A stretch of 64,000 nucleotides of DNA from contig CAYGTO010000001.1 in NCBI GenBank assembly GCA_964352815.1, forward strand, positions 154,820-218,819, in the 5' to 3' direction. Positions 2,664 through 38,197 of the stretch are shown piece after piece. The translations under genes and the position numbers were made by a program. Position 1 is the first letter of the stretch. Each line of letters begins with the position of its first letter. Below the pieces are notes generated by a model. That model was not told the DNA's origin and did no database searches. It saw only the letters and a program-made list of their open reading frames with translations. This DNA is from an uncultured Azospirillaceae bacterium. Lineage in GTDB: Bacteria; Pseudomonadota; Alphaproteobacteria; Rickettsiales; UBA3002.

Positions 2664-2674
2664 GAGACTGCCCC

Positions 2675-3739: not shown

Positions 3740-3788
3740 AGATCGCTTATAGGGAATGGGAGCAGGGCTGTCAGCATAATTCTGAGGA

Positions 3789-4538: not shown

Positions 4539-4542
4539 CAGC

Positions 4543-5484: not shown

Positions 5485-5558
5485 AGCTCTCTTCTTTTTA
5501 TGAATTGCCACCATAGCAAAAAGGATGCATTTCGCATCTCTTTTGCTACAACCATCCT

Positions 5559-9896: not shown

Positions 9897-9977
9897 TTTC
9901 TTACTTGTACTAGCCCGTAGCTATGCGTATGCTGCGCGGCAAAGTCAATGAAACATTTGCTAAGGAAAAACAAGACC

Positions 9978-12900: not shown

Positions 12901-13787
12901 GTGAGTCGGTCTATCGGGGATTGAAAGGTTTCGGGTCTCAGGTGTCAGGTTCCAGTGAAATCGTCCAGAAACCTGATCCCCGGAACCTGGAACCTAATAT
13001 ATCAGTTCACCTTATCGATTTTCCCGATGTTTCAGCGCTCTCGGACGAAACCGAACTGGTCACCGACATGGACCGGGTGCGCGACACCTGTAACACGATT
13101 CTCTCTATCCGTAACGAAACCAATATCCGCATTCGTCAGCCGCTGGCCTCGGCGACGCTCTATGGCGAAGGCGCGACGCGTCTCAAACCGTTCGAGCAGC
13201 TGATTGCCGATGAGGTGAATGTCAAAGCGGTGACCTTTTCCGATGATTTGGATGCGGTGGCGGAGCGATGCTTGAGTGTGAATTTCAAAGTTGCTGGGAA
13301 GCGCTTAGGCGCGAAAATGAAAGCGGTCGGCGCGGGTGCGAAGCAAGGCGATTGGCAGGTGAATGACCAAGGACAAATGGTAGTTGCGGGCGAGGTGCTT
13401 GAGCCGGAAGAATATAGCCTGACGCTCACGGCCAAAGGCGAGACCCAAGGCGCACAGGCGCTGGCGAGTAATGATGCGATCGTGGTACTCGACACAGACA
13501 TCAGCGCGGAACTCGCACGCGAAGGGCTCGCGCGGGATGTGGTGCGTGCAGTGCAGCAGGCACGTAAAGATGCGGGGCTGAATGTCGCCGATCGGATTAT
13601 TCTCTTCGCAGAGGCCGGAAGCGATGTTAGCAGCGCGATTGATACGCATCGTGATTATATCGCCGAACAAACCCTCGCGCATGCGATTGAGTTATCAGCC
13701 CCATCTGAAGAAGGGTTCAGCGCACAATCGCAGATCGGCAGCGAGTCGGTGACCCTTTACATCCATAAACATGCAGACGCTGCATGA
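9978..13787 (+). CDS. ileS: isoleucine--tRNA ligase, type 2 (long C-terminal extension), carrying an inserted GNAT domain
   Basis: PHYGH (HIGH), GWDCHGLP, TTTPWTLPSN, YPHCWR, DWSVSRNRFWGTP, and KYSKRLKN (KMSKS-type). The start is taken at MSYPQVEPNPNF (ATG 9978), 30 nt inside the tracked ORF. Confidence 0.93.
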   Translation: MSYPQVEPNPNFVKLEEEVLDFWEKEQVFQVSVEQRSAQKDGKNNEFVFYDGPPFANGLPHYGHLLTGYVKDAFARYQTMKGKRVERRFGWDCHGLPAEMGAEKELGVSGRVAITEYGIEKFNAHCRESVMKYRDAWRDYVTRQARWVDFDNDYKTMDTDFMESVIWAFKQLFDKGLIYESYRVMPYSWAAETPVSNFETKLDNAYREREDKAVTVKFRLDEPLEVLPREVKEHISKTHALAWTTTPWTLPSNLALAVSSELYYAPIVKEGETHLIAASSVKPYAKELFGKEQFETARCILRPFNEEDEALMVSLHTNTEVMETVNDGVRSEEEAKQDLKDSIKRQKKHGFDQFAVFHKESGAFMGRAGLSMIVQRADGDEKDLKPVLRAALLPDFWKGGYGTELCRFVTMLGFTLWGYDEVIAGALENNPPSHRMIERVGFKKVDTVMYKRMMGPFFTCSKEDFFAASLVKGSDLVGKEYAPLMPYFAGHENAFRILAGDFVEEGEGTGIVHMAPAFGEDDQKLCEASGIALVCPVDEKGRYTEELRAVKNAPELTGMHVIWDEASNHKETGNEAVIQYLKSTGQLLKQEQYLHNYPHCWRTDTPLIYRALSSWYVKVTDIKDRMVEKNQNINWVPGHIRDGAMGHMLDTAPDWSVSRNRFWGTPVPVWRSDNPENDELYVFGSIAELEDFFGKQVVDLHRPYIDELTKPDPQNSDYTIRRVEEVFDCWFESGSMPYAQVHYPFENKDWFETHFPAQFITEYIGQTRGWFNTLISLSTALFDTNPFENCVCHGVVIDAETGLKYSKRLKNYKDPKEVFDSYGADALRWMMLASPVMRGSDIGVDPEGAFIRDVVRLYIKPFWSAYHFFTLYANSDGLTGSLVTNSENVLDRYILAKLKSTVTKIDESLAAYDSPTACTAASQFFDVLNNWYIRRSRERFWSPEKNADKQAAYNTLYTVLHHMAAALAPLLPLVSESVYRGLKGFGSQVSGSSEIVQKPDPRNLEPNISVHLIDFPDVSALSDETELVTDMDRVRDTCNTILSIRNETNIRIRQPLASATLYGEGATRLKPFEQLIADEVNVKAVTFSDDLDAVAERCLSVNFKVAGKRLGAKMKAVGAGAKQGDWQVNDQGQMVVAGEVLEPEEYSLTLTAKGETQGAQALASNDAIVVLDTDISAELAREGLARDVVRAVQQARKDAGLNVADRIILFAEAGSDVSSAIDTHRDYIAEQTLAHAIELSAPSEEGFSAQSQIGSESVTLYIHKHADAA
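10863..11381 (+). other. in-frame RimJ/RimL-type GNAT N-acetyltransferase domain inserted within ileS
   Basis: ILRPFNEEDEALM..., FWKGGYGTELCRFV, ENNPPSHRMIERVGFKKV. Flanked by IleRS sequence ...KELFGKEQFE and SLVKGSDLVGKEYAPLMPYF. Confidence 0.75.
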
Positions 13788-14950: not shown

Positions 14951-14967
14951 TCTTCATAAAACTGTCA
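14951..14967 (+). promoter_or_regulatory. shared upstream motif copy A (TCTTCATAAAACTGTCA) plus TATAAT 22 nt downstream
   Basis: Identical 17-mer to 26617-26633. TATAAT lies at 14990-14995, upstream of the ORF at 15017/15029. Confidence 0.45.
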
Positions 14968-15016
14968 CGTTTCTCCCTGCGTAGTTAGTTATAATAAGAC
15001 TATAGAAATGTAACTA

Positions 15017-16054
15017 TTGAACAGAATTATGGCATCGTTAGACGATAAATATGGCGGAGAAAACGCAGGCGCATTAAGGCGCTGGGCGAACTGGATCAAA
15101 AAGACCGGTAAAGCCATCAACCAATTCGGATTCATTATCCCATTTGCGAAAAGCATTGCGAATGGCTTTACTAGCTTATTTGGTGACGCAGCGATCAAGG
15201 CATCGGATGGATTTGGAACGCTGAGTGACTCCGCGCTTCGAGAAGTAGCAGATAGCGCTGGCCTCGAAGTTGCTGCAGATGCAACATCAGATCAGATTAA
15301 AAACGCTTTGACTGATGCAAGCCCTGAAATTCAGTCAGCATTTACTGAATCACTGCCAGATTTTGCTGGAATTACAGACGGAAGTTTCTTCGATACTGCC
15401 CTATTTGACTGGGCTGGGGCATCCGCGACGGCAGATGCTCTGAGTAAGTTGACTGGCATTGGTTTTGTGCTGGGTATTCTCCAAGCTGCGGCTGGATCCA
15501 TCTTTACCTTCGTTGGTAACGTCATGATCGGTGCTGATAATCTGATTAAAGGTCAATATAACAAGGCAATCAAGGAAGCGGTTGCTGGAACAGTAGAAAC
15601 TGGCATTGAAGCATCTTATGGTCTAGGAGCTGCATTCTTGAATATGCCAGGCATCAGCTGGGTGCCATGGGCGCTGAACTTGCCGAGTTTGATCGGTACC
15701 GGAAAATATGTATCAACCCACGCCTATGAAGCAACGATGGATGCGATGGACCATGTGGTGGGCAAAGACGAAACACAAGGCTCATTCATGGAGCGTAATT
15801 TCCCTGGTTTGTCTATGCAAAGCCTGCGTGCACAGCCCGCAGCGTTAGCGATGACGCCAGCGATGGCCGCTATTCCGGCCTATGCTGCGCCACAGCCAGC
15901 GCCAGGCTACGGCCCAACGCATTGGCAGCAACGCCGCGCGGATGAGCTGGGTATGGGGCTAGACCAACTCCAGCAGCAGCGTGGCATGACGGATTTACAG
16001 CAAGCCCGCGCCGCACGTGCAGAACAGCTTGCATTAGAGGAATCACGCGCTTAA
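15017..16054 (+). CDS. hypothetical protein with Gly/Ala-rich hydrophobic core and Gln/Arg-rich tail
   Basis: No recognisable family. The tracked start is TTG; the ATG at 15029 (MASLDD) is more likely. Glycine-zipper-like segment GIGFVLGILQAAAGSIFTFVGNVMIG. The C-terminus is Pro/Ala- then Gln/Arg-rich. Confidence 0.5.
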   Translation: MNRIMASLDDKYGGENAGALRRWANWIKKTGKAINQFGFIIPFAKSIANGFTSLFGDAAIKASDGFGTLSDSALREVADSAGLEVAADATSDQIKNALTDASPEIQSAFTESLPDFAGITDGSFFDTALFDWAGASATADALSKLTGIGFVLGILQAAAGSIFTFVGNVMIGADNLIKGQYNKAIKEAVAGTVETGIEASYGLGAAFLNMPGISWVPWALNLPSLIGTGKYVSTHAYEATMDAMDHVVGKDETQGSFMERNFPGLSMQSLRAQPAALAMTPAMAAIPAYAAPQPAPGYGPTHWQQRRADELGMGLDQLQQQRGMTDLQQARAARAEQLALEESRA

Positions 16055-16091
16055 GAGGTGTGACAAACAGACAATAATTCAGTAAACTAAT

Positions 16092-16640
16092 ATGGTAGAT
16101 ACAATGAATCAGGCAGCACACGACATGGCTCAATTAGAGCATAATTATTACGATATCAGCCAGCTTTATGATATGGCGGAGGAGCTTGCGGAGACGATTG
16201 ACCGTGCGCATGTTGCCGACCCTAAGGCACAGCTTGCGCTGATGGAGCCGCTCATTGAGCAGGTTAGCGAGTCAGCGGAAGTGCTGGAAGAAGAATATTT
16301 GACCCTCGCAGGCGGCAATGTTCGCCACAAAGCAAAGGTCAAAAGCAAAGTTGAAAGCGCGCTACGCAAAATTTTCACCGCGATTGATGCGTATGGACAA
16401 GCGGTTGGACGTGAAGCAGGTGAAGCGATTGATAATATTAAAAATGTTGCCGATCCGATTGTGCGCAAAATGAAGCGTCATATGGAAACCATTATTGGTC
16501 ATTTCCTAGCCCTTATTGACCTATCACTCGATATGGTCATGCATAAGAACGATATTGAAGAGCTGAAGCGCCGCCATTCACAGATTGCAGCGATGCTTCA
16601 CGCGGCGAGCCAAGGGCATGTGCCTGGGCAGCAGGTCTAA
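16092..16640 (+). CDS. hypothetical acidic all-helical protein
   Basis: Starts 37 nt downstream of the previous ORF. Highly acidic N-terminal half and predicted helical. No family recognised. Confidence 0.5.
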   Translation: MVDTMNQAAHDMAQLEHNYYDISQLYDMAEELAETIDRAHVADPKAQLALMEPLIEQVSESAEVLEEEYLTLAGGNVRHKAKVKSKVESALRKIFTAIDAYGQAVGREAGEAIDNIKNVADPIVRKMKRHMETIIGHFLALIDLSLDMVMHKNDIEELKRRHSQIAAMLHAASQGHVPGQQV

Positions 16641-16653
16641 TATGAAATGACAT

Positions 16654-16682
16654 AAAAAAGGGAGCCAATCGGCTCCCTTTTT
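16654..16682. terminator. bidirectional rho-independent terminator
   Basis: AAAAAA-GGGAGCC-aatc-GGCTCCC-TTTTT between convergent genes (16640 end and glnA end 16704). Confidence 0.8.
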
Positions 16683-16703
16683 CGTTTATGTGATTTAGCG
16701 TAA

Positions 16704-18119
16704 CTACACTGAATAATACATCGCGAATTCGACAGGGCTTGGAGTTTGATCCAAGCGCGCTACTTCTTCTTCCTTCAGCTCAATATAGCCATCGATTAGC
16801 TCGTCATTGAACACACCACCGGCTTTCAGGAACTCACGATCTTCATCGAGTGCTTTCAGCGCCTGACGCAGGGAGCTACAAATCGCGGGAATATCTTTAG
16901 TCTCTTCTTTCGACAGAGAATACAGATCTTTTTCAAGCGCTTCACCTGGGTCGATCTTATTCTTAATCCCGTCAAGGCCAGCCATCAGCAGCGCGCTGAA
17001 GGTGAGGTATGGGTTACCCGCAGAATCCGGGAAACGGGTTTCCAAACGTTTCGCTTTCGGGCTCGCCACATGCGGAATCCGGATCGATGCCGAACGATTC
17101 CGCGATGAGTAGCAGAGGAGTGTCGGCGCTTCATAGCCTGGCACCAAGCGCTTATAGCTGTTGGTTGAGGCATTCGTGAACGCATTGAGTGCGCGCGCAT
17201 GCTTGATCACGCCGCCAATGTAGTGCAGGCACATGTCAGACAGGCCCGCATATTTATCACCTGCAAAAAGTGGTGTATTACCTTTCCAGATCGACTGGTG
17301 CACATGCATTCCTGATCCATTATCATTTGCAACAGGTTTCGGCATAAAGGTCGCCGTTTTGCCAAATTCATGCGCGACCATTTGCACGACATATTTATAT
17401 TTTTGAACATTATCAGCAGTTTGCACCAATGTGCTAAAGTTAATTCCGAGCTCATTCTGTGCTGGTGCCACCTCATGGTGGTGCAACACAGGTTCAATGC
17501 CCACTTCCGCTAAGCGGCGCAAACATTCCGAACGTAGCTCCGCCATCGAATCCACTGGAGGTACGGGGAAATAGCCACCTTTAATACCAGGGCGGTGACC
17601 CATATTACCGAAGTCGAAATCCTTACCAGTGTTGATTGGCGACTCTTCCGCATCGAGGCGGTAGAAGCTACCCATCATGCCAAGATCGTAACGCACATCG
17701 TCAAAGACGAAGAATTCAAGCTCAGGGCCAAAAAATGCTTTATCACCAATACCAGTCTCTTTCAGATAAGCTTCCGCACGCAGTGCAGTCGAACGGGCAT
17801 CACGCTCATAGGCTTTTCCGTCCGATGGTTCAATCACATCGCAAAATACGATCGCCGTTGGGTGGCTGGCGAATGGGTCCATAAACGCCGTGTTGCCATC
17901 TGGCATTAGAATCATGTCAGATTCGTTAATATCTTTCCACCCTGCGATCGAGGAGCCGTCAAACATGATGCCATCTTTCATCAGATCTTCGTCGACTTGG
18001 TTGACGTAGTATGTGGTGTGCTGCCATTTCCCGCGTGGATCAGTGAAGCGGAAATCAACGAATTCTGCGTTATTTTCTTTTAAAAGTGAGAAAAATCGGG
18101 TTGTACCGTCTTTCGACAT
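16704..18119 (-). CDS. glnA: glutamine synthetase, type I
   Basis: 471 aa; FDGSSI.GW, ELEFF.FD, KP...DNGSGMH.H.S, and the NLYDLP-like region (KDLYSLS) characteristic of GSI. Confidence 0.93.
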
Positions 18120-18365
18120 GTGGAAAGCTCCATAATAATTTACATTCTCCGGCTAAATTCATGGAGTTATACTGGCATTGCTGCGCCTGCGAAAGGACGG
18201 AGTGGTTTTTGTCCTCAGTCTGTGGATTAAATTCATAATATATTGATTTATATGTTTTTACTTAAATAGGCGATGAAGAGGTGGCCAGCAGGCGGCCTTT
18301 TGGGTCGATGGAGGCGTTAAGCGCATCGCATAAACCGAAAAGCCGAGCAAAAGCAGCCATAAATG

Positions 18366-18379
18366 TCATCAAACTGTCA
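18366..18379 (+). promoter_or_regulatory. shared upstream motif copy C (TCATCAAACTGTCA) plus TACATT 22 nt downstream
   Basis: 13/14 match to the core of copies A and B. TACATT lies at 18402-18407, upstream of the ORF at 18447. Confidence 0.4.
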
Positions 18380-18446
18380 TCCACTTATGCGCTCAGAATG
18401 GTACATTAAGTGATTAGGAAATAATGATTTCAGTGGTTTAAGGTAT

Positions 18447-19781
18447 ATGCCTAGAGAGATTCAGATTCAACCTACCGAACGCGAACGTGGCTATCTAGCT
18501 AGCCCCAAAACGGACGCGATTGGCAAATTTGCCAAAGGTCTGCTCAATCTCGTTCGTAATTATGCGGGTATGACGCGAAATGGCACTGTTGCCGATGCGG
18601 CAAGGGGTTTGACGGGCTTACTTCATGAAAATGACTTCATGGTGGAGCCTGAAATTGTGTATGCGTGGCTTTTGGGGCAGGATATTCCACGTGATACATT
18701 AAAAGATGCGGTGGCGAGTTCGATGCCGCTCAATGGAGTTCTGGGGTATTATGAAACCTCTTATGAGAATGCGGCAGCATCGCTGATGGATGCGGAAGGG
18801 AAGTGGCCAGGGATTGAAATTATTCCGGTGGATGAAGGAAAGGCGAGAGCCAGAGCTGAGGGGAGCCGCTCTGTGGACACAAAGCGTTCGCGCAGAGGTG
18901 TGCATGATCGCATCAAAGACCGGCCAAGTTTGCCACCAAGACGCCACCAAGGCAATATATTATATCGTGAGCTTCTAGATACAGAAATTGAAGACATGAT
19001 TAATGGGCCAAAGGGTGTGGCCACAGAGAACTTTTTTGAGCTTATTACCTGTATGGTTCGGCGTGATTACGAGAGCAATGCAGAAGCAGCGGATAATCTA
19101 GAACCAGAAAGTTGGGCGAATCATGATGATCGTGACTCAGCACTTGGAGAGTATATTAGAGGAGAAAAATTCCCGCCATTATCGCTTCGCAATGTAATGA
19201 GACAAAAGCTCTGCAAGAATGATGCGGAGCGGTCTAGGTTCGATCAGCTCTGGCTTGGAAATATAAAACGAGTGCTCTCAGATCCTTCGTGCGATAGTTA
19301 TACATTCAGCTCTATCCTAACTACTTTAGAAAAAGAGTACTTTATAAAAGCCCTTGATATTGTCCGCATACAAAGCGAAGAAGGTATTGAGCAAGAAGAA
19401 ATATTATACTTCTTACCACGTTCTCAAGGAGAATATCTGAAATATGTGCGCTATGCTAACGGTATTGGTAGGTCTGAAGTAGCTCACGAAACTGGTTGTG
19501 CTGAAACCACCATCGGAGACGCTGAGAATCTACATAAATCTTACTCGGTCGAAGATAACATCAGGCGACGTCTTTGCACGTTTTATCGGGAACGTGACGC
19601 CGCTCAAGGACGGGGAGTGTTTTTTGAAGAAGCGTATCAATCACTACCAGGTTGTCTGCCCAAAGCACAGAAAAAGTCTAAAGAAAGAGTGGGGTTAGAG
19701 GACGTGCCAGGCTCAATTGCCGTCCAAGCCGCAGAGCTACAAGGCTTTGCCAGTGACGTCCTCGCCTCACGTGCGATCTAA
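18447..19781 (+). CDS. hypothetical protein, possible degenerate HTH modules
   Basis: 444 aa with no clear family. The C-terminal part (GEYLKYVRYANGIGRSEVAHETGCAETTIGDAEN) resembles an XRE-type helix-turn-helix. Confidence 0.45.
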   Translation: MPREIQIQPTERERGYLASPKTDAIGKFAKGLLNLVRNYAGMTRNGTVADAARGLTGLLHENDFMVEPEIVYAWLLGQDIPRDTLKDAVASSMPLNGVLGYYETSYENAAASLMDAEGKWPGIEIIPVDEGKARARAEGSRSVDTKRSRRGVHDRIKDRPSLPPRRHQGNILYRELLDTEIEDMINGPKGVATENFFELITCMVRRDYESNAEAADNLEPESWANHDDRDSALGEYIRGEKFPPLSLRNVMRQKLCKNDAERSRFDQLWLGNIKRVLSDPSCDSYTFSSILTTLEKEYFIKALDIVRIQSEEGIEQEEILYFLPRSQGEYLKYVRYANGIGRSEVAHETGCAETTIGDAENLHKSYSVEDNIRRRLCTFYRERDAAQGRGVFFEEAYQSLPGCLPKAQKKSKERVGLEDVPGSIAVQAAELQGFASDVLASRAI

Positions 19782-21101
19782 CTACGCCGCCTTACTTCCA
19801 GGCGTGCCATTCTCGCCAAACGGATCGGTCATCAGCATCGTATCTTCGCGGCGCGGGCTGGTGGAGACCAGCGCAACCTCGCAGCCGATCAGCGTTTCGA
19901 TGCGTTTAATGTAGGCCACCGCATTGGCCGGCATATCGCTGAGTGATTGAATCCCCTCGGTCACCGACTTCCAGCCCGGCATGCTCTCATAGATCGGCGT
20001 GACTTCCGCTTGCAGCGCCTCGGCAGAAGGGAGGTAGTCATAGCGTTCGCCGTTAATTTCATAGCCGGTGCAAATCTTGATTTCGTCACACTCATCGAGC
20101 ACGTCAATCTTCGTCAGGGCGATGCCGTGAATGCCCGAAATGGTCACGGCTTGGCGCACAAGCACTGCATCGAACCAGCCACAGCGGCGTTTACGCGCCG
20201 TAACAGTGCCGAACTCGTGCCCCCGTTTCCCAAGAAGTTCACCAATGTCGTTATCTTGTTCGGTTGGGAATGGGCCGCTACCAACGCGCGTGCTGTAGGC
20301 TTTAGTAATGCCGAGCACATAGTCCACGGCTGACATCGGGCTGCCTGAGCCGGTCGTGGCGGCGCCTGCCATCGTGTTGGACGAGGTCACATAAGGGTAC
20401 GTGCCGTAATCGACATCCAGCATGATGCCTTGCGCCCCTTCATAAAGGATACGTTTGCCATCACTGCGCGCTTCCTCAAGTAGGCGCCAGACTGGGGTGG
20501 CAAAGGGCAGAATTTGTGGCGCAAGCACAAGTAATTCTTGAAGCAGATTATGCACGCTAAACTCTTCCAAACCCGAAGCACGCAGTAGCGCATTATGATG
20601 AGAAAGCATGTTCCGAAGCTTGGCTTCGAGCACGTCTTTATCCACCAGATCACAAATCCGAATGGCGCGGCGAGCAATCTTATCTTCATAGGCGGGGCCA
20701 ATGCCGCGGCCGGTCGTGCCGATTTTTTCTTTTCCGCGCAGCGCTTCGGCGGCGGCATCAAGCTGCGGGTGGACGGGGAGAATCAGTGTGCAATTCTCAG
20801 CGATCTTTAGATTATCCGGGGTGATGGTAACGCCCTGCTCGGTGAGCTTATCGATTTCTTTCAGAAGCGCGACAGGGTCGACGACGACGCCATTACCGAT
20901 CACACTGATTTTTCCGGGGCGCACGATGCCTGATGGAAGCAGGCTGAGTTTATAGGTAACGCCGTCAATGACCAGCGTATGCCCGGCATTATGCCCGCCT
21001 TGAAACCGCACGACGACATCGGCGCGTTCAGACAGCCAATCGACGATTTTCCCTTTTCCTTCATCTCCCCATTGGGAGCCGATGACGGCTACATTTCGCA
21101 T
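19782..21101 (-). CDS. purA: adenylosuccinate synthase
   Basis: [28 protein letters not shown], and the TKIDVLD-type motif. Confidence 0.93.
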
Positions 21102-21103
21102 AA

Positions 21104-22054
21104 TTATCCTTTGGTTGCAGTGTGTTCGATGAGATCATCCAAATAAACGGTGAGCCCGGTTGCCGGGTCGCCATACGGGCTGATATAGCGACCGCCACGG
21201 CCAAGTTCGCGGTGGAAGCCTTCCATGAGTAGCGCGAAGCTGAGATCGGTGTGATAACCATAGCCAGAGCTATCGAGCGGGTCGAGGGTAATGCGTAGCT
21301 TCGTGTTTTTGAGCGCGCTCGTGAGGGCGTCAAGCATGGCCAGGCATGTCTCGATCGTATCTGAAAGTGTGGTGCTGTCCTTTTGATAGCGGGTTAGCAG
21401 CTGCACGCCTTCGTCGCATGGCCCGGAGAAGAGGAGCAAAGCGCGATAGTCGCCATAGCCAGCCGCCTCCAACTGAGAAACCGATTTGCGCGCAATGGCT
21501 TCGCTGAGTGTATGGGCGTGTGCTGGGTCGCATGATTTTAGCAATGCGTTGGTTAAAGAGGGAAGCGAAAGAGCGAGGGTGAACGCCGCATCAGGCTGGA
21601 TACGCTGAAGCCCGTCGATCACCGTGTTGATCACGCGTGCATCTTCGGCAACCTCATGTGTGCCAAAAGATTCAAGCCCCACTTGCGTGACCTGGCGGCG
21701 CGTATCGAGCGTGTCGGCCTTCATGCGCAGGTTCGTTCCGCCATAGCTGAGGCGAAGTGGACGTGCTTCTTTTTTAAGTAAGGTGCCGGCAATGCGCGCC
21801 ACTTGCATGGTCATGTCGCCGCGCAACGCAAGAGTTTTGTGTGACAGCGGGTCCACGGCGCGGAACACCGTCTTGCCGTAATGATCGCCGGTGCCTTGGC
21901 AGAGCGAGTCTTCAAACTCCATCATCGCCGGGAAGGTTTCGCCAAAGCCTGCCTCGTCAAACGCCGAGAGCAATGACGCCATCATCACACGCCGGGTTTT
22001 CGCCAGCGGCGGCGTAAGGTCCGAAAAGCCGGATGGGAGTAAGGGCGTCGTCAT
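21104..22054 (-). CDS. hisZ: ATP phosphoribosyltransferase regulatory subunit
   Basis: HisRS-paralogue pattern (P.G..D..P, LRGDMT.QVARI, GGRY) and the conserved hisZ-purA adjacency. Shorter (316 aa) than typical. Confidence 0.7.
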
Positions 22055-22239
22055 AACCTATTGACATTCCATGTGTTGATGGCAAGAAGCTGTTATAGGC
22101 GAGGGGAGGCGGCGCGTCAAGTGTGGAGATGGTCTAAAGCCCCGGGTTTCCCTTGAGAATTCATTGCTTTCTGATTACCCACAAGTAACTAGCGCATGAT
22201 GGCGGCATCCGTTATAGTGGCGCCAAGATTGAGGAATAT

Positions 22240-23454
22240 ATGTCTGATTATAGCCCCCGCCAGAGTAGAAAAAAGAAAGAACGCGTTGTGTTTATTGCCA
22301 TGATCATGGTGATTGGGCTCGCGCTGTGGTTCGGCTCATCCTTGGTGATTGCGCCTTCGCGTGACGATGATGAAACGATCGACACGATTGATTCCAAAGC
22401 GAAGTTGGAATCGATTCTGACGGTTGAGCAGGTGAATGGCGAGCCACACCGTAGGATTATTCGGATCAATGGTGAGACCGAAGCCAGCAGGATGGTCGCG
22501 CTTTTAGCGGAGACATCGGGCAAAGTGGTTGAAATTCCAGTAAAAGAGGGCCAATCCGTTACCAAAGGCACAGTGATTTTTAAGATTGATGAGCGTGATC
22601 GTCGGGCACAGTTGAAACGTGCGCAGGCTTCGCTAAAGCAGCGGCAGATTCAGTATAGTGCCGCAAAAAAGCTGCAAGAGCAGGGCTTTCAGAGTGAAGT
22701 GCGTTTGGCAGAGTCCTTTGCCAATTTGGAGTTTGCTAAGGCGGAGCTTGAGAATATTCAGCAAGATCTTGACTTCACGCGCTTGAAAGCACCGTTTGAC
22801 GGGGTGATTGAGGCGATCGATGTCGAAGTTGGCGATTTTGTCTTCGCGGGTGCGCCGGGGAATATTCCAAGCGGTGCGCCGGTAACCATTATCGATATGG
22901 ATCCGATGATCGTGAAAGGCTTTATCTCTGAGAATGACCGCGCGCTGGTGAGTGTGGGTGATATTGCCAAAGTCGAATTTAGCGATGGCCGTGTGCTGGA
23001 AGGAACGATTGCCTATCTCGCATCGGCGTCTGAGACGGCAAGTCGCAGCTTTCGTATTGAGATTGAGCTCGCAAATGCGGATGGTAGGGTGGCATCGGGT
23101 GTGACCGCGACGCTGCTAGTGCCGACTGAAGAGATGACCGCATATAAGGTCTCCTCATCGGTGTTGTCGCTTGATGATCAGGGCAGCGTAGGCGTCAAAC
23201 ATTTGAACAGCCAAAATGAGGTGGTGTTTAGCCGCATTGAAATCATTGAAGAGGTGAAAGGCGGCGTCTGGGTGACCGGGCTGCCAGGCCAAGTGCGGTT
23301 GATTACCGGCGGGCATGCCTTTGTCAATAAAGGGCAAAAAATTCCGAATGATCTGATCAGTGAAATCGAAACGACGCCTACCATAGCCGCAACACCTATG
23401 GAGCCAGCGGTGTTACCCGTCATGCTCGAATCGACCTCGAATGCGGCGGAGTAA
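22240..23454 (+). CDS. RND efflux periplasmic adaptor (membrane fusion protein)
   Basis: N-terminal TM helix, then lipoyl, coiled-coil hairpin and beta-barrel pattern (G.V..I.VKEGQSV.KG..I..ID, APFDGVI). Immediately upstream of the RND pump. Confidence 0.85.
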   Translation: MSDYSPRQSRKKKERVVFIAMIMVIGLALWFGSSLVIAPSRDDDETIDTIDSKAKLESILTVEQVNGEPHRRIIRINGETEASRMVALLAETSGKVVEIPVKEGQSVTKGTVIFKIDERDRRAQLKRAQASLKQRQIQYSAAKKLQEQGFQSEVRLAESFANLEFAKAELENIQQDLDFTRLKAPFDGVIEAIDVEVGDFVFAGAPGNIPSGAPVTIIDMDPMIVKGFISENDRALVSVGDIAKVEFSDGRVLEGTIAYLASASETASRSFRIEIELANADGRVASGVTATLLVPTEEMTAYKVSSSVLSLDDQGSVGVKHLNSQNEVVFSRIEIIEEVKGGVWVTGLPGQVRLITGGHAFVNKGQKIPNDLISEIETTPTIAATPMEPAVLPVMLESTSNAAE

Positions 23455-23457
23455 CCC

Positions 23458-26400
23458 ATGGTAAGTGCCCTGATTGATGCCGCTGTTGATCGCTGGCGCA
23501 CAGTGCTCATGATGCTTGGCTTTATCTTGGTGATGGGCAGCGCGTCCTACGTGTTGATTCCAAAAGAGGCGGCGCCGGACATTAATATTCCGCTAATATA
23601 CGTATCCGTTACGCTCGAGGGGATTTCCGCTGAAGATGCGGAACGGCTGCTAGTGCGCCCGCTTGAGAAAGAGCTCAGCTCCGTCGATAATGTGAAGGAG
23701 ATGCGTGCTGAGTCAATTCTTGGCTTTGCCTCAGTGACGCTGGAGTTTGAAGCCGGCTTTGATGCGGACACTGCGCTGAATGATGTGCGCGCGGCGGTGG
23801 ATCTCGCGAAGCCGGAACTTCCTGAGGATGCTGATGAGCCGAAAGTGACCGAGCTCAACTTCAGTACCTTTCCGATTCTGAATATCAATCTGACCGGTGA
23901 TGTTGCGGAGCGTACCTTGCTGCGCACCGCGCGCCGGCTTCAAGATCGCCTAGAAACCATCAATAGCGTACTGGAAGTCAAAATTCTTGGCGACCGCGAG
24001 GAGATGCTCGAGATTGTCATCGATCCGCGCACGCTCGAATCGTATAATCTCTCGCCGGAAGATGTGTTCGCCTTTGTACAGAACAACAACATTCTGGTCG
24101 CAGCGGGAAATCTGGATACGGGGAATGGTCGGTTTGCGGTCAAGATTCCAGGGTTGATCGAGACGCTGCGTGATATTTGGGATGTGCCGGTCAAGATTAC
24201 GGATAGCAAAGTGGTGACGCTGAAAGAGATTGCCTCGATTCGTCGGACGTTCAAAGATCGCGAAACCACGGCGCGGGTGAATGAGAAGCCAGGCCTGATT
24301 CTAGCGGTGTCTAAGCGTACCGGCGCGAATATTATTGAGACGGTTGAGGCGGTGCGCGCGATGGTCGAGGAAGAGCGTGCCTTCTGGCCTAGCGGCATGG
24401 AGGTGATTTACTCGCAGGATAATTCGAGCGAGATCATGACGCGCCTAACTGATTTGCAGAATAATATCATGCTCGCCATTTTCTTGGTGATGATCGTACT
24501 GCTCGTCACGCTTGGCGCGCGTTCGGCGTTTCTTGTCTCCTTCGCCATTCCGGGTGCTTTCCTGTTTGGCGTGCTCTTGCTCGCCGTGTCCGGCTTTACC
24601 ATGAATATTGTGGTGCTGTTTGCGCTGATTCTCTCGGTTGGGATGTTGGTCGATTCTGCCATTGTTGTTGCAGAATATGCCGCGCGATTAGTCAGCCAAG
24701 GTGTGCCGCCACGCCTCGCCTATCCGCAGGCGGCCAAACGCATGGCCTGGCCGATCATTGCCTCGACGGCAACGACATTGGTGGTGTTTATGCCGCTGCT
24801 ATTCTGGCCAGGGATGGTGGGGCAGTTCATGCGCTATATGCCATTGACCTTGATCATGACATTGGCCGGCTCACTGCTGATGGCGCTGATTTTTCTACCG
24901 ACGCTCGGCATTCGCCTGACGCCGAAGTCACAGCGTGATCGTGGAACAGTGCACTCATTCGATGAGATTCCGCCCGAGGCAATGGACCAAAGCGAGAAGC
25001 CGGGTGCATTCTCCATGGCCTATGCGGGCTTGCTCGATCGGCTGCTGCATATTCCTGGCCGCGTTGCTGCCGTGATTTTCCTGATTGTGGTTGGGTTGAT
25101 GGTTAGCTTCAGCATGTTCGGCAAAGGCGTGGAGTTTTTCCCAAAAATTGACCCGGAAGTGTCCCAAGTGTTGATCAAAGCGCGTGGCAATCTCTCGGTC
25201 GATGAGAAGGACGCGCTCCTAAAGCAAGTGGAAGCGCGCATTCGCGATATGAAAGAGCTGAAAGTGCGTTCAGCGCGGGCAGGGGCGTTGCCGCGCCGTG
25301 AAATCACCGAAGATACGGTGGCGATCATTGGTATTGAGTTTGTCGATTGGCGCGACCGGCCGAAGGCGGATGTGGTCTTAGAAGAAATCCGCAAACGCAC
25401 GCGCGACATTCCGGGCATTATGATTGAAACGAAAAAACAGGAGAAAGGCCCGCCCGTCGGTAAAGCGCTTCAGCTCGAATTTACCTCGAATAATCCGGAA
25501 GTGCTTGAAGATACGGTGGCGAAAGTGAGCGAAGGGCTTGAGCAAGTAGGTGGTTTTATCAATATTGAAGACACACGGCCGATCCCGCAGATCGAGTGGG
25601 AGTATAAGGTCGATCGCGAGCTGGCAGCGCAATATGGCATCGATATAAATAAGATTGGTCAGGTGGTGCGCATGGTGACCAATGGCTTGATCGTCAACGA
25701 ATATCGCCCGGATGATGCGGATGACGAGCTCGACATTGTTGTGCGGTTCCCCGAGGAATATCGGACGCTAACGCAATTGCAACAGCTGCGCGTGTTTAGC
25801 GGCGGTCAGCAAGTACCGATTAGCCAATATGTTGAGCGGATTCCTAAGCCGAGCGTTGGCACGATCTACAAGATTGAAGGTAAGCGCGTGATGGAGCTGA
25901 AGGCCGATGTTGAACCTGGTTTGGTCGCAGATAAAAAGGTTGGCGAGCTGAAAGCATGGCTGGAAGAGAATATGGAGTTTGACCCGCGCGTTAATGTGGC
26001 GTTTGGCGGAGAAGATGAAGAACAAAAAGAGGCCGGAATCTTCCTTGCAACCGCTTTCTTGATCGCGCTGTTCTCGATGGCGCTGATCATCGTCACGCAG
26101 TTCAATAGCCTCTATGATATGGTGGTGATTATGAGTGCGGTGTTCTTCTCAACCGGAGGGGTGTTGCTTGGGTTGCTCGTGACTGGTCAGCCCTTTGGCA
26201 TAGTGATGTGCGGTGTGGGGGTGATCTCGCTCGCGGGGATTGTGGTGAATAATAACATTATCTTCATCGATACCTATCATATCTTGCTCAAGCAGGGAAT
26301 GAGTGTCCGTGAAGCGCTGATTTACACCGGGATGCAGCGTTTGCGGCCGATTCTATTGACCGCCGGAACAACGGTGCTTGGGTTGCTGCCGATGGTGCTT

Positions 26401-26625
26401 GGGATGAATCTGAATTTCGTCACGCGTGAAGTGACGTTTGGTTCGCCTTCGAGTCAATGGTGGACCCAGCTTTCAACTGCCATTGCTGGCGGGCTGACCT
26501 TTTCGACCGTTTTGACGCTGCTCTTCACCCCATGCCTCATTATGCTATGGCATCGCATTGCGGAGTGGCGTAATAATATGAAAAGTAATAATAATTTAGG
26601 CTCTCCGCCACCGGTTTCTTCATAA
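23458..26625 (+). CDS. RND family efflux permease (AcrB/AcrD/AcrF family)
   Basis: 1055 aa with 12-TM topology and two large periplasmic loops. Typical GMLVDSAIVV and GIVVNNNIIFID motifs. Confidence 0.9.
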   Translation: MVSALIDAAVDRWRTVLMMLGFILVMGSASYVLIPKEAAPDINIPLIYVSVTLEGISAEDAERLLVRPLEKELSSVDNVKEMRAESILGFASVTLEFEAGFDADTALNDVRAAVDLAKPELPEDADEPKVTELNFSTFPILNINLTGDVAERTLLRTARRLQDRLETINSVLEVKILGDREEMLEIVIDPRTLESYNLSPEDVFAFVQNNNILVAAGNLDTGNGRFAVKIPGLIETLRDIWDVPVKITDSKVVTLKEIASIRRTFKDRETTARVNEKPGLILAVSKRTGANIIETVEAVRAMVEEERAFWPSGMEVIYSQDNSSEIMTRLTDLQNNIMLAIFLVMIVLLVTLGARSAFLVSFAIPGAFLFGVLLLAVSGFTMNIVVLFALILSVGMLVDSAIVVAEYAARLVSQGVPPRLAYPQAAKRMAWPIIASTATTLVVFMPLLFWPGMVGQFMRYMPLTLIMTLAGSLLMALIFLPTLGIRLTPKSQRDRGTVHSFDEIPPEAMDQSEKPGAFSMAYAGLLDRLLHIPGRVAAVIFLIVVGLMVSFSMFGKGVEFFPKIDPEVSQVLIKARGNLSVDEKDALLKQVEARIRDMKELKVRSARAGALPRREITEDTVAIIGIEFVDWRDRPKADVVLEEIRKRTRDIPGIMIETKKQEKGPPVGKALQLEFTSNNPEVLEDTVAKVSEGLEQVGGFINIEDTRPIPQIEWEYKVDRELAAQYGIDINKIGQVVRMVTNGLIVNEYRPDDADDELDIVVRFPEEYRTLTQLQQLRVFSGGQQVPISQYVERIPKPSVGTIYKIEGKRVMELKADVEPGLVADKKVGELKAWLEENMEFDPRVNVAFGGEDEEQKEAGIFLATAFLIALFSMALIIVTQFNSLYDMVVIMSAVFFSTGGVLLGLLVTGQPFGIVMCGVGVISLAGIVVNNNIIFIDTYHILLKQGMSVREALIYTGMQRLRPILLTAGTTVLGLLPMVLGMNLNFVTREVTFGSPSSQWWTQLSTAIAGGLTFSTVLTLLFTPCLIMLWHRIAEWRNNMKSNNNLGSPPPVSS

Positions 26626-26633
26626 AACTGTCA
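26617..26633 (+). promoter_or_regulatory. shared upstream motif copy B (TCTTCATAAAACTGTCA) plus TACACT 22 nt downstream
   Basis: Identical 17-mer to 14951-14967. It overlaps the RND gene stop codon. TACACT lies at 26656-26661, and GAGGA (26669-26673) precedes the ATG at 26685. Confidence 0.45.
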
Positions 26634-26684
26634 TAATTTTGTGCCGTAACTCTGATACACTGGAGGATGAGGATATGTAATTTT

Positions 26685-27482
26685 ATGACGATAAGCCCTA
26701 TACAAGCAAGCCAACATGTTCCAGGCCCTGTGAGAGATTTTCTGTCTCACATGAAGGAAAAAATGTTCCCCGAGGTGGGCAAGGCGGGAGAAGCATTACA
26801 TTTGGCTGAGCTCTCCAAAGAAGAGATGTGTAAACATATTCGAGACTATTTGGATAGTTCGGGCATTACGGCGAGTGAGTCTAAAATTGAACTATTAGAA
26901 GCCCTGATTGGTAGAGAGTACCTTTCGCTAAGTGATAAGCCGCTAGAAAGCGCTATTGAAGAAGCGGCTAAGCAATTCCTCAAATTACATGAAAAACTGG
27001 GCAGAGGCGGAATGTCCTTATGTGACACTATTGGACAAGAATTCGCAGGTGAAACATTCACAATCAAAGCGTTTTTAGAAGCAGCAAAAAACCCAGAATC
27101 AGAAATAGCTCAAAAGTGGCGCGCGCTTATCCCTGAATTTGAAGGGAAAATAGCGAATATGACGAATCAGAGCGATGGGCTGATCGCGTTCCGTTCTGCG
27201 GAAAATACGTGGATGGGATTGTGTCATATCTTCAACCCGATCAGTCGCGGGGCAGACGGTGTTTCTTACAGCCCGCTTGGCAAACTCATGGCGTATGGCG
27301 GGGCGTATCTGACCGTTTCCGGCGCGGTTGATTTACTGTTTGGTGAGCGGAATGAAGAAACGGGTAAAGTCGAGGTGGATATTGGTCATGAACTTCCTAA
27401 GACATTGGCTGGAATAGGCCTCATTGCGCTCGCGCTGGGCATGTATGGCCGAAACGCCCCTGGTTTGATGCGCCACCAGTAA
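26685..27482 (+). CDS. hypothetical protein with C-terminal hydrophobic segments
   Basis: No recognisable family. The start is chosen at ATG 26685 (MTISPIQ) because GGAGG abuts the tracked ATG at 26667 with no spacer. Confidence 0.45.
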   Translation: MTISPIQASQHVPGPVRDFLSHMKEKMFPEVGKAGEALHLAELSKEEMCKHIRDYLDSSGITASESKIELLEALIGREYLSLSDKPLESAIEEAAKQFLKLHEKLGRGGMSLCDTIGQEFAGETFTIKAFLEAAKNPESEIAQKWRALIPEFEGKIANMTNQSDGLIAFRSAENTWMGLCHIFNPISRGADGVSYSPLGKLMAYGGAYLTVSGAVDLLFGERNEETGKVEVDIGHELPKTLAGIGLIALALGMYGRNAPGLMRHQ

Positions 27483-27546: not shown

Positions 27547-27624
27547 GGCGGGTGTAGCTCAGTTGGTTAGAGCGCCAGTTTGTGGCACTGGAGGCCGTGG
27601 GTTCAATCCCCATCACTCGCCCCA
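27547..27624 (+). tRNA. tRNA-His (anticodon GTG)
   Basis: Hand-folded cloverleaf: G-1, acceptor GCGGGTG/CACTCGC, D arm GCTC-AGTTGGTTA-GAGC, anticodon stem CCAGT/ACTGG with loop TTGTGGC (GTG at 27582-27584), T arm GTGGG-TTCAATC-CCCAT, C73, and encoded CCA. Confidence 0.9.
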
Positions 27625-27644: not shown

Positions 27645-28253
27645 TTACTTCACACCCAGCGCGTGGCGCGCTTCTTCCACCTGCTCATTGAGAACACGCA
27701 GCCCTTCTTCGTCGCCATCGAGCGATTTCGCGCGCTTGTGATAGATTGCGGTGACATCATCCGGGGTGGCGCTTGGGCCAAGGCCAAGATAGGTCATCCA
27801 TTCGGGCAGCTCGTAATTGGATGACGTGCTCGCTGCGGCGGCAACACTGTCTTTGCTAAACCCAGCAAAGAGCTGGGGTGTGGTTGCGATGTGCCATTTC
27901 TCACAATTATGCAGTTGGCGCAGCACCATATGCAGCGCATAAACATTTTGTTCAGGAAGCTGCCAATGACTGCTCACCAGCGTGAATTCTTGCTGGTTTA
28001 TTGTGAGAGATATAGCAAAGGCCGAGTCTTTTCTAGACTGGCTACGCTGACGCGGGTTTTTCACATCGTCAAAATAGCTATAGATGGTCGCCTTGCTTAC
28101 CGGCAATGCGCGAATTTCATCTTCAAGATAGGTAAGCGCTTCTTCCAGCGTTAAGCTATTTGAGATATCAGGCGAATACGCACGCTGATTCTGCGAAATA
28201 AACCCAGCGGTGAGTGCTTCGGGAATCGATGATTTGTAAAAAATGTCATGCAT
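27645..28253 (-). CDS. hypothetical protein with J-domain-like C-terminus lacking HPD
   Basis: Start at Met39 (MHDIFYK) with an AGAGGA RBS. The C-terminus WMTYLGLGPSATPDDVTAIYHKRAKSLDGDEE resembles the first helices of a DnaJ J-domain, but the HPD tripeptide is absent. Confidence 0.35.
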   Translation of the reverse strand: MHDIFYKSSIPEALTAGFISQNQRAYSPDISNSLTLEEALTYLEDEIRALPVSKATIYSYFDDVKNPRQRSQSRKDSAFAISLTINQQEFTLVSSHWQLPEQNVYALHMVLRQLHNCEKWHIATTPQLFAGFSKDSVAAAASTSSNYELPEWMTYLGLGPSATPDDVTAIYHKRAKSLDGDEEGLRVLNEQVEEARHALGVK

Positions 28254-28488
28254 GGGCTCATATCCTCTGTGGATATAGTTGTACCACCGAATGGGGGAAT
28301 GTGCAAGGCGTTGTAAATTAAACGAAATTAATGCGCACTGAATGGCTTTTGAACAAGATTGCGTCAAAAATTAAGAAATCATCAACCAAACAAAATTATA
28401 CTGAAAAGAGTCTCTTCATAGCTAACGCTTGGCAATCTGTGCCATTTTAGGCTATAACAAACCTATAATAATAAAAGAAAAGGCGCAT

Positions 28489-30477
28489 ATGTCCGATATG
28501 CCACAGGGAGAAGGTAAACCGTCTTCGAACAAAAAGACCATGAGCATGGAAGAAGAGTTCTTCCAGATGATTCAGGATGCCGTGTCGGAAGAGCCTGAAC
28601 ATTCGGCTGAAGAAGCCCAACCTCAAGCCGAAGCCCAATCGGTTAGTGATGATATTCTCGGAGAATTAGAAAAATTGGCCGGAGAGGCACCGGACCAAGA
28701 GATTGAGCCTGCACCACAGGAGGCGGCTCCTGAGCAGCCCGCTCCAGCGCCTACCGCACATGCGAGTGATGATCCTTCACAAGGGGAGGTGAAAAAGCCT
28801 AAGCGTCTCGGCGAACAGCTCATGGATTTGGGCTTAATCGCACAAGATCAGCTTGAGGTGGCGCTGTTAGAGCAGCGGAATAATAAGAAGCTTCTCGGAA
28901 CGATTCTTGTCGATATGGGCTTCATCACCGAGTCAGCGCTTGGTGAGGTGCTCGCGGAATCGTCGGGAACGGAAAAGTTTGATCCAAAGAATGTCCGGGT
29001 TGACCCGACATTGTTAGCAGAAATTCCTCAAGAAGTGTGTCAGCGTAACAAGGTCCTGCCGGTTTCGAAAGAAGAGGATGGCAGTGTGAAACTCGCCATG
29101 GCAGACGTCTATAACGTCCTCGCGATTGACCAGGTGCGCCGCTATCTCGATAAATCCGCAAAGATTATCCCGCTCTATGCGACCGAAGCGGAGATCATGG
29201 AGCAGCTCGATCGCTATTATAAATATGAGATGTCGATTGATGGTATTTTGCGTGAAATCGAGACAGGGATTCGCGATAATAGTCAGCTCGACGGGCGCGA
29301 AGAGGGCTATGTGAACCCGACGGTGCGTTTGGTTGATGCGCTGCTGATTGACTCGGTGAAGCAAAGCGCATCAGATTTACACTTTGAGCCAGAAGGAACA
29401 TTTCTTCGACTGCGTTACCGGATTGATGGTAAGCTAGAGCAAGTGCGCAGTTTCCACCGCGATTATTGGGCGGCGATGCTGGTGCGTTTGAAGATCATGT
29501 CTGGGATGAACATTGCAGAGACGCGACATGCGCAAGATGGCCGGATCAGTTTCAATGTTATGGGTAAGGAAGTCGACTTTCGTGTGGCAACCCAACCAAC
29601 GGTACATGGTGAGAATGTGGTGCTACGCTTGCTTGATAAATCAAAGGCACTGATCTCGCTCGATAGACTAGGTTTTTCAGAGCATAACCTGAATCTCCTT
29701 AAGCGCTGCCTTAAGCGGCCAGAGGGAATTATTATAGTGACCGGTCCGACCGGTAGCGGTAAGACGACGACGCTTTATTCTGTGCTAAGCTTCATTAACT
29801 CGATCGACGTCAATATCATGACCCTAGAGGATCCGGTGGAATATAGGCTGCCGTTGATTCGCCAGACGCACGTCAAAGAGGGGACGATGGATTTTGCGGG
29901 AGGGATTAAATCGCTCTTGCGTCAAGATCCGGATATTATCTTCATCGGGGAGGTGCGCGACGAAGAAACCGCGATCAATGCGGTGCGTGCGGCGCTCACT
30001 GGTCACCAGGTCTTTACCACGCTGCACACGAACGATGCGCTTGGCGCGATTCCACGTTTAGGTGATATTGGGGTGCCAGCACACATGTTGTCTGGCTCGT
30101 TGATTTGTTGTATGGCGCAGCGCTTGGCGCGAAAGCTCTGCCCAAGCTGCAAAGAGCCCTACACAGCGAGCGAAGACGAATGCCGCATTATGGCGGTGGA
30201 CCCCGCAAACCCTCCGACGATATACAAAGCTGTCGGTTGTGAGGAGTGCAACGGCAAGGGGCATAAGGGCCGTGTTGCGATTGTAGAGATTTTGCGGATC
30301 GATGATGGGATGGATGAACTCATTGCAACCCATGCAACGCGCGCGCAAATGATGGAATATGCGACTGAGAACGAATTTGTGGATATGGCGCAAGACGGGA
30401 TCGATAAGGTGTTGGCGGGCGTTATTGATCTTGATGATCTGATGAAGCGCGTCGATTTAACAGAGCGTTTGAATTAG
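28489..30477 (+). CDS. pilB: GspE/PilB-family pilus assembly ATPase (MshE-like N-terminus)
   Basis: Walker A GPTGSGKTTT, Asp box, Walker B IIFIGEVRD, His box, and tetracysteine CPSC...CEEC. The N-terminus has tandem RLGxxLxxxGLI....L...L..Q motifs. About 105 aa of acidic/Pro-rich leader precede them. Start taken at ATG 28489. Confidence 0.88.
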   Translation: MSDMPQGEGKPSSNKKTMSMEEEFFQMIQDAVSEEPEHSAEEAQPQAEAQSVSDDILGELEKLAGEAPDQEIEPAPQEAAPEQPAPAPTAHASDDPSQGEVKKPKRLGEQLMDLGLIAQDQLEVALLEQRNNKKLLGTILVDMGFITESALGEVLAESSGTEKFDPKNVRVDPTLLAEIPQEVCQRNKVLPVSKEEDGSVKLAMADVYNVLAIDQVRRYLDKSAKIIPLYATEAEIMEQLDRYYKYEMSIDGILREIETGIRDNSQLDGREEGYVNPTVRLVDALLIDSVKQSASDLHFEPEGTFLRLRYRIDGKLEQVRSFHRDYWAAMLVRLKIMSGMNIAETRHAQDGRISFNVMGKEVDFRVATQPTVHGENVVLRLLDKSKALISLDRLGFSEHNLNLLKRCLKRPEGIIIVTGPTGSGKTTTLYSVLSFINSIDVNIMTLEDPVEYRLPLIRQTHVKEGTMDFAGGIKSLLRQDPDIIFIGEVRDEETAINAVRAALTGHQVFTTLHTNDALGAIPRLGDIGVPAHMLSGSLICCMAQRLARKLCPSCKEPYTASEDECRIMAVDPANPPTIYKAVGCEECNGKGHKGRVAIVEILRIDDGMDELIATHATRAQMMEYATENEFVDMAQDGIDKVLAGVIDLDDLMKRVDLTERLN

Positions 30478-30545
30478 ATCGTTTCTTTCCAGCACATTTT
30501 TTTGTATACTACCTAAAAATAACAATCACTTATATGTAGGGAGCG

Positions 30546-31748: not shown

Positions 31749-31769
31749 GTGTAGGGTGCCATATAGGCC

Positions 31770-33470: not shown

Positions 33471-33474
33471 TGAT

Positions 33475-37009: not shown

Positions 37010-37024
37010 AAGGCCACCTTTTCC

Positions 37025-38119: not shown

Positions 38120-38197
38120 AGCTTCTCCCTGTGCCAAAGAATCATGCATTTCAAGGCATTAGAATGAGTCCTTATCGGGGAGCCGCAACCACGCCTT

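Follow-up and report, generated by a model that had tools for sequence, protein, structure and literature searches.

Which regulator, if any, acts on a motif that stands in front of several genes of no recognisable family in an uncultured alphaproteobacterium? The question arises from a 64,000-nucleotide stretch of contig CAYGTO010000001.1 (uncultured Azospirillaceae bacterium), referred to here as the window. An initial annotation of this DNA had described a short repeated sequence, followed after 22 nt by a −10-like hexamer, upstream of three open reading frames (ORFs) that are here called o1 (followed by o2), o3 and o4, and had proposed a common promoter or activator site. Judged by its sequence, the shared motif is a Pho box, the sequence motif to which PhoB, a response regulator, binds, and the three sites are probably PhoB-dependent sigma-70 promoters of accessory genes, controlled by PhoB or a very close PhoB-family regulator and expected to respond to phosphate limitation.

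Three sites of one geometry in the window

The 17-mer TCTTCATAAAACTGTCA is present in exact copies at 14951–14967 and 26617–26633, and TCATCAAACTGTCA at 18366–18379 constitutes a third copy. A gap of 22 nt, counted from the final A of each copy, leads to TATAAT at 14990, TACATT at 18402 and TACACT at 26656. All motif coordinates, gaps, hexamers and start-codon positions given in the initial annotation were verified. The exact 9-mer AAACTGTCA has three copies in the window, all on the plus strand and in short gaps 5′ of the orphan ORFs, each with TANNNT after 22 nt. When the window was scanned with a weight matrix built from related sites, positions 14951, 26617 and 18363 scored 39.5, 32.9 and 23.4 bits, respectively; the next-best position reached 10.4 bits and the maxima in 20 shuffles were 8–20.5 bits. 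Sequence similarity among the three sites ends at the motif. The three-site pattern is not a product of chance. The caution in the annotation that a single identical 17-mer pair is not improbable was fair. The window contains only three repeated loci of at least 17 nt; the other two lie within coding sequence, one of them in paralogous PilT-type genes. A fourth site, gaTTGTCATAAAACTGTCACATTTCT, is located ∼0.9 kb left of the window edge in the same genome (L130, position 13581), giving a density of four sites per ∼66 kb of source genome.

The motif as a Pho box

Read in an 11-bp register, the three sites are tCTTCATAAAA-CTGTCACGTTT, aTGTCATCAAA-CTGTCATCCAC and tCTTCATAAAA-CTGTCATAATT, and each is formed by two head-to-tail TGTCA-type 7-mers with an A-rich 4-nt spacer between them. 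The promoter elements are the following, with transcription starts as predicted positions.

14951..14972, plus strand: Pho box 1, 22 bp, TCTTCATAAAA CTGTCACGTTT, two 11-bp direct-repeat units, 39.5 bits
14990..14995, plus strand: −10 element TATAAT, 22 nt after TGTCA, transcription start predicted near 15002
18363..18384, plus strand: Pho box 2, ATGTCATCAAA CTGTCATCCAC, 23.4 bits
18399..18407, plus strand: extended −10 element TGgTACATT, 22 nt after TGTCA, start predicted near 18414
26617..26638, plus strand: Pho box 3, TCTTCATAAAA CTGTCATAATT, 32.9 bits
26653..26661, plus strand: extended −10 element TGaTACACT, 22 nt after TGTCA, start predicted near 26668

The third promoter is tightly packed against its neighbour. 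The gene for a resistance-nodulation-division (RND) efflux pump at 23458–26625 has its stop codon TAA (26623–26625) inside the first unit of Pho box 3, and the whole promoter fits in the 59-nt intergenic gap after this gene.

The Pho-box consensus of E. coli is CTGTCAT-A(AT)A(TA)-CTGT(CA)A(CT), with CTGTCATAAAACTGTCAT as the box of pstS and TTTTCATAAATCTGTCAT as that of the phoB region (PMC3465305). The 14-mer of the initial annotation is an exact part of the pstS box. The window sites match the 18-bp E. coli consensus CTGTCATAWAWCTGTCAY at 15 (14951), 16 (18363) and 15 (26617) of the 18 positions, and the proximal repeat is perfect in all of them. The current definition of the Pho box is 22 bp long and comprises two 11-bp units of seven conserved and four A/T-rich positions (PMC4415409). 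The window sites conform to it: their two direct repeats, each of 7 bp and similar to CTGTCAT, have centres 11 bp apart, and a 4-bp tract follows each repeat (AAAA/GTTT, CAAA/CCAC and AAAA/AATT in boxes 1, 2 and 3). The first tract is A-rich in all three sites and the second is A/T-rich in two of them, reading ATTT in the consensus of related loci. The same motif, YGTCAYR followed by an A-rich 4 nt and a second YGTCAYR, was obtained for PhoB of Caulobacter by chromatin immunoprecipitation sequencing (bioRxiv 10.1101/741363).

Known Pho genes carry the same sequence. The exact 17-mer was scanned across species-representative genomes, and among the matches listed it lies directly 5′ of phoB in an enterobacterial-type contig (L013), 5′ of pstB in Sutterella (L025/L074), where a phoB homologue is present in the same locus, and 5′ of a glycosyltransferase-like ORF (assigned without a library scan) in several Thalassolituus species. 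It is true, as had been annotated, that the motif does not resemble the sigma-70 −35, sigma-54, EcfG or CtrA consensus; the remark is beside the point for a known Pho box, a textbook motif and not a new regulatory element. With this assignment, PhoB, or else a response regulator closely akin to it within the PhoB family, very probably acts at these sites. ExsA-, PmrA- and CpxR-type sites had also been considered as candidates and were dropped, since the 11-bp direct repeat fits a Pho box.

Two groups of matches from the genome scan deserve separate description. The enterobacterial-type contig, NZ_JBQPOM010000067.1, is labelled Vagococcus sp. WN89Y; at 4040–4805 it encodes a PhoB behind an enterobacterial-type phoB promoter, and this protein is 95.6% identical to E. 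coli PhoB. The presence of an enterobacterial phoB in a Firmicute-labelled assembly suggests assembly contamination. In Crocosphaera sp. MO_202.B2, the 17-mer is found 20–45 nt from many contig ends (L007, L012, L016, L027 and ∼20 more loci), where the copies sit inside an identical longer repeat, gttatatctgacggataagaacgtcTCTTCATAAAACTGTCAtaaaaactt...; this repeat probably marks the end of a mobile element present in many copies and has no connection with the Pho box.

Promoter anatomy and the position of the box

A scan for −35/−10 consensus elements found no −35 match at any of the three promoters. The −10 element is TAnnnT in all three and is preceded by TGn in two (TGgTACATT and TGaTACACT). 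A TAnnnT hexamer with TGn and no recognisable −35 is the form expected of a sigma-70 promoter that depends on an activator. E. coli Pho promoters (pstS, phoA and phoB, controlled by PhoB/PhoR) are alike in having two TGTCA-type 7-mers with an 11-bp period and an A-rich spacer, and likewise have no −35 hexamer and depend on an activator.

The position of the box differs between the two. When the hexamer is set at −12 to −7, the proximal repeat CTGTCAY occupies −40 to −34 and the distal repeat −51 to −45, and 21 nt separate the end of the 18-bp box from the −10 in all three window promoters. E. coli, by contrast, has the box in place of the −35, with only 10 nt between its end and the −10; read on the sequence, phoA has CTGTCATAAAGTTGTCAC, 10 nt and TATAGT, and the enterobacterial phoB promoter has the exact 17-mer, a T, 10 nt and CATAAT. 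The box in the window thus lies exactly 11 bp, or one helical turn, further upstream than that of E. coli, and its proximal repeat takes the place of the E. coli distal repeat.

Boxes at such upstream positions have been described. The pho-box repeats of the P. aeruginosa PUMA3 targets pdtA/phdA, which are under PhoB and the extracytoplasmic function (ECF) sigma factor VreI, are at −40/−45 and −50/−56, upstream of the −35, the position deduced for the window promoters (PMC4971064). The PUMA3 targets, being virulence-type accessory genes, offer a further likeness. They differ in that an ECF sigma factor recognises its own −35 and −10 there, whereas the −10 here is sigma-70-like and the window promoters yielded no conserved −35 of their own that would suit any known sigma factor. 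In S. meliloti, most Pho boxes are upstream of the promoter (PMC3131613). Given the precedents in P. aeruginosa and S. meliloti, the E. coli position defines a subtype rather than the Pho-box family. Blanco et al. (2011) are reported to place sigma region 4 on the E. coli distal repeat, next to PhoB; if so, the contact between PhoB and sigma region 4 could be kept at the shifted position. A degenerate third half-site was also sought in the 21-nt gap as an explanation of the spacing, and the candidates (CTCCCTG, TTATGCG and TTGTGCC) match at only 2–3 of 7 positions and are unconvincing.

Conservation in homologues and related loci

The initial annotation had called for examining the motif upstream of orthologues. 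Three o1 homologues (43%, 44% and 36% identical) have TTGTCATAGAACTGTCAC, gTTCATAAAACTGTCAC or TTGTCACAAAATTGTCAT upstream, and exactly 22 nt further on stands TATACT, TATTAT or TATAAT; box, gap and −10 are therefore kept. The distal repeat at the homologue sites is TTGTCAT or TTGTCAC. In an ungapped alignment of the four o1-family promoters, the invariant columns fall in the box, in G-n-TAT..T and in the start ATGGCA, and the spacer diverges; all four keep TAT..T and, two bases upstream of the hexamer, the G. One of the three homologues also adjoins gpsA, as o1 does. Strain variants (L001–L003) are 100% identical to the window and so carry no footprint information.

Loci from alphaproteobacterial metagenome-assembled genomes (MAGs) yield the consensus aaTCTTCAYAAAACTGTCAcATTTCT. 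The distance to the −10 was counted for 37 sites with at most two mismatches, drawn from the window and 22 such MAG loci, some of them shown to come from relatives. TANNNT follows TGTCA at an offset of 22 in eight sites, 23 in 11 and 11 in five, the chance expectation being ∼0.3 per offset. In the related loci, the E. coli-like offset of 11 nt is thus used by a minority of sites. That the offsets form two classes separated by one helical turn fits an activator that works from one face of the helix and does not fit a sigma −35 element. The sites can be dense: certain loci, of relatives and of other alphaproteobacterial MAGs, hold 3–4 of them within 8–21 kb. A metagenome scan with the extended motif retrieved four loci only. 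Together, the o1-homologue promoters and the MAG loci support the earlier proposal of a common activator site defining a small regulon of lineage-specific proteins.

The downstream genes

The genes behind the three boxes, and the terminator that closes the first unit, are as follows.

15029..16054, plus strand: o1, 341 aa, no Pfam, NCBIfam, PHROG or PADLOC family, ATGGCA start conserved
16092..16640, plus strand: o2, 182 aa, acidic, predicted to be helical, following o1 in the o1–o2 operon
16655..16682, both strands: bidirectional intrinsic terminator, 12–13 bp stem with T runs on both strands, ending o1–o2 and the convergent glnA
18447..19781, plus strand: o3, 444 aa, no family
26685..27482, plus strand: o4, 265 aa, no family, GC content at third codon positions (GC3) 0.46

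Two start codons, 15017 and 15029, had been offered for o1. Both codons are present, and the homologues favour the conserved ATGGCA at 15029 over the TTG at 15017. For o4, an ATG at 26667 is too near the −10 to serve as the start, and 26685 stands.

The lack of a recognisable family, annotated for o1, o3 and o4, was borne out: none of o1–o4 matched a family in Pfam, NCBIfam, PHROGs or PADLOC. The o1 family is very small, with seven matches among 1.84 billion representatives, and is confined to assemblies of uncultured organisms. The o2 protein is 67% identical to the product of the gene that follows the o1 homologue in L132. No o3 homologue other than the identical sequence itself was found among 5.8 billion clusters, and o3, the only one of the four compared with PDB sequences, had no match there. 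AlphaFold single-sequence models reached a pLDDT of 40 (o4) and 49 (o2). GC3 is 0.41–0.50 for o1–o4 as against 0.57–0.65 in most neighbouring housekeeping genes. The ORF after the fourth site (329 aa) has sub-threshold GDSL-lipase similarity only. The orphan proteins showed no kinship to each other or to the proteins encoded downstream of the boxes in the MAG loci.

Two of the related loci have features worth recording. In L015 (MAG SOY_31_metabat_223), the adjacent ORFs 1557–3452 and 3546–5069, both preceded by boxes, look paralogous by eye and have a common proline-rich C-terminus (…IPGLEPSILDDIKTNGIPRTGDALPPPTNGERTAITGP…); their N-terminal …GWL.GID.PE… resembles …AWLLGQDIPRD… of o3 by eye only, no significant alignment having been found. 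In L132, the contig with the 43% identical o1 homologue, the next gene after the o1–o2 pair, at 4602–5720, encodes a PhoH-family ATPase (PF02562); a box was not found upstream of this gene, and the adjacency may mean nothing.

Candidate regulators

The explanation that we consider probable is activation by PhoB or a near relation of it. The 22-bp box would be bound in tandem by PhoB, or by a winged-helix response regulator very close to it within the PhoB family, as a phosphorylated dimer, each of the two 11-bp units presenting a (C/T)TGTCA(C/T)-type 7-mer and an A/T-rich 4-mer. The promoters, which have no −35 hexamer, would depend on this activator, and the bound regulator would recruit sigma-70 holoenzyme, with transcripts predicted to start ∼17–33 nt before o1–o2, o3 and o4. 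The expected signal would be phosphate limitation, and the products would be fast-evolving accessory proteins found only in this group of uncultured organisms.

Several observations weigh against PhoB as the regulator. The window has neither pho nor pst genes, and tblastn searches with PhoB, and with the pstB and phoB of Sutterella and the ORFs around them, detected none in the alphaproteobacterial loci examined. The spacing is not the 11 nt after TGTCA seen in E. coli phoA and phoB. The sites are unusually uniform, nearly the whole consensus given above (∼25 nt) recurring across genomes. The targets, too, are unlike those of PhoB elsewhere. Among 36 ORFs, namely 35 directly downstream of sites and o2, none reached a Pfam gathering threshold; in the related loci this held for 10 of 10 ORFs and then for a further 22 of 22. 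The sample is biased, as most sites were sampled through one exact 17-mer, and some of the short ORFs may be spurious. The classical Pho regulon (PstS, PhoX, Phn and Ugp) is nonetheless strikingly different: it consists of well-known families, and targets without families are therefore unexpected. E. coli Pho promoters serve phosphate acquisition and not orphan proteins. The same difference separates the window from the PhoB regulons of Caulobacter crescentus and Sinorhizobium meliloti, which are also alphaproteobacterial and share the YGTCAYR motif (Caulobacter) and boxes mostly upstream of the promoter (S. meliloti): those regulons are led by pstS, pstCAB-phoUB and phnCDE, none of which is among the 36 ORFs. 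In several pathogens, however, virulence and secretion genes are known targets of PhoB (PMC12351708), and orphan targets do not, on this account, require another regulator.

The most serious alternative, which we regard as unlikely, is a PhoB paralogue or another OmpR-family regulator with Pho-box-like specificity, dedicated to many accessory or effector-like genes and responding to something besides phosphate, for instance host or prey contact. PmrA of Legionella and Coxiella provides a precedent, being an OmpR-family regulator of many lineage-specific effector genes. Its tandem-repeat site also stands at a fixed distance from the −10, before many family-less, lineage-specific Dot/Icm effector genes; the PmrA repeat is of the cTTAATatT type, these bacteria are Gammaproteobacteria, and the orphan proteins described here are at most candidate secreted effectors. 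The absence of Pfam families and of any canonical Pho gene among the 36 ORFs would suit such a dedicated regulator, as would the density of sites, both in this genome and in some of the other loci, and the near invariance of the extended site across genomes. However, the motif fits the PhoB consensus of E. coli and Caulobacter and that of no other characterised OmpR-family regulator, and a paralogue of the same specificity would cross-talk with PhoB sites. The scarcity of canonical genes may also reflect under-sampling by the single 17-mer, and virulence and secretion genes are within the reach of PhoB itself, as cited above.

A −35-type element of an alternative sigma factor is very improbable. 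The fixed distance to a −10-like hexamer and the conserved cATTTCT just downstream would be in keeping with such an element, but the 22-nt gap is outside the 15–19 nt spacer range of the sigma-70 family, the motif is a direct repeat with an 11-bp period that occurs at two offsets (11 and 22/23), and the −10 is itself sigma-70-like (TATAAT, TGnTAnnnT). Chance similarity, or a relic of some repeated or mobile element without regulatory function, to which one 17-mer pair in 64 kb, in itself not improbable, and the contig-end repeat of the Crocosphaera MAG might point, is effectively refuted by the end of similarity at the motif in the window, scores far above background, motifs kept upstream of homologues whose flanks diverge, and sharply peaked offsets.

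Implications of a proposed PhoB-type switch

From the motif, o1–o2, o3, o4 and the fourth gene just outside the window are predicted to be switched on together, probably by phosphate limitation. The motif provides a testable handle on genes that are otherwise without annotation, and dozens of comparable orphan genes in related uncultured genomes are marked by the box as well. What sets these promoters apart is modestly unusual: in related genomes of uncultured alphaproteobacteria the geometry is fixed one turn upstream, and the targets are solely family-less proteins.

A wider role is possible, though we hold it with more doubt than confidence: in this clade of uncultured Alphaproteobacteria, orphan genes that are numerous and evolve fast might all answer to a PhoB-type regulator as their master switch. 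The orphan genes could then be effector-like or serve interaction with a host or prey, and the 25-nt box, almost invariant and placed one turn further upstream than in E. coli, may be a clade-specific geometry. Such a switch, if real, would parallel PmrA and the Dot/Icm effectors in Legionella, built on a phosphate sensor. Should the regulon prove almost wholly family-less, the box could list the accessory or effector repertoire of the clade from sequence alone.

Organism and genomic context

The window carries dnaA-dnaN-recF together with ordinary housekeeping genes, and is thus probably near the replication origin. The nearest relatives of its DnaA and GlnA are 70–77% identical and come from MAGs labelled Rickettsiales, Alphaproteobacteria or Rhodospirillales bacterium; the glnA loci of these relatives are not syntenic with the window. 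An origin in a Legionella-like gammaproteobacterium had been considered at first and was rejected on the strength of these alphaproteobacterial relatives. Sequence 100% identical to the window is present in the Logan assemblies ERR3534985, ERR3535001 and ERR3535002.

The isoleucyl-tRNA synthetase (IleRS) gene at 9948–13787 (plus strand) encodes a protein of 1279 aa that is closest to the MupA/MupB-like type and has a GNAT acetyltransferase domain inserted at residues 308–453. The NCBIfam model for IleRS with GNAT scores the window protein at 293 bits against a cut-off of 1999, and the GNAT-bearing IleRS may be a separate fusion.

The cluster at 28429–35078 (plus strand) contains an MshE-type ATPase, a T2SS-F-type membrane protein and three family-less ORFs (566, 216 and 318 aa). 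At 18273–21407 of L125, from a MAG with a 71% identical GlnA, the order of ATPase, F protein and a family-less ORF after them is the same, which suggests a pilus or secretion system common to the group. Two PilT-like ATPase genes come next, on the other strand (35882–38149). Within the cluster, the exact 18-mer ATGGAGCAGCTCGATCGC occurs at 29197–29214 and 30747–30764 (plus strand), in the genes for the MshE-type ATPase and the neighbouring T2SS-F-type protein; the two proteins are unrelated and the 18-mer may be common to both genes by chance.

Downstream of o4, a tRNA-His gene (27548–27624) precedes a minus-strand ORF of 240 aa (27645–28367) that has no Pho box. This ORF matches phrog_9210, a phage family of unknown function, with E = 5e-15, and may be a small phage remnant.

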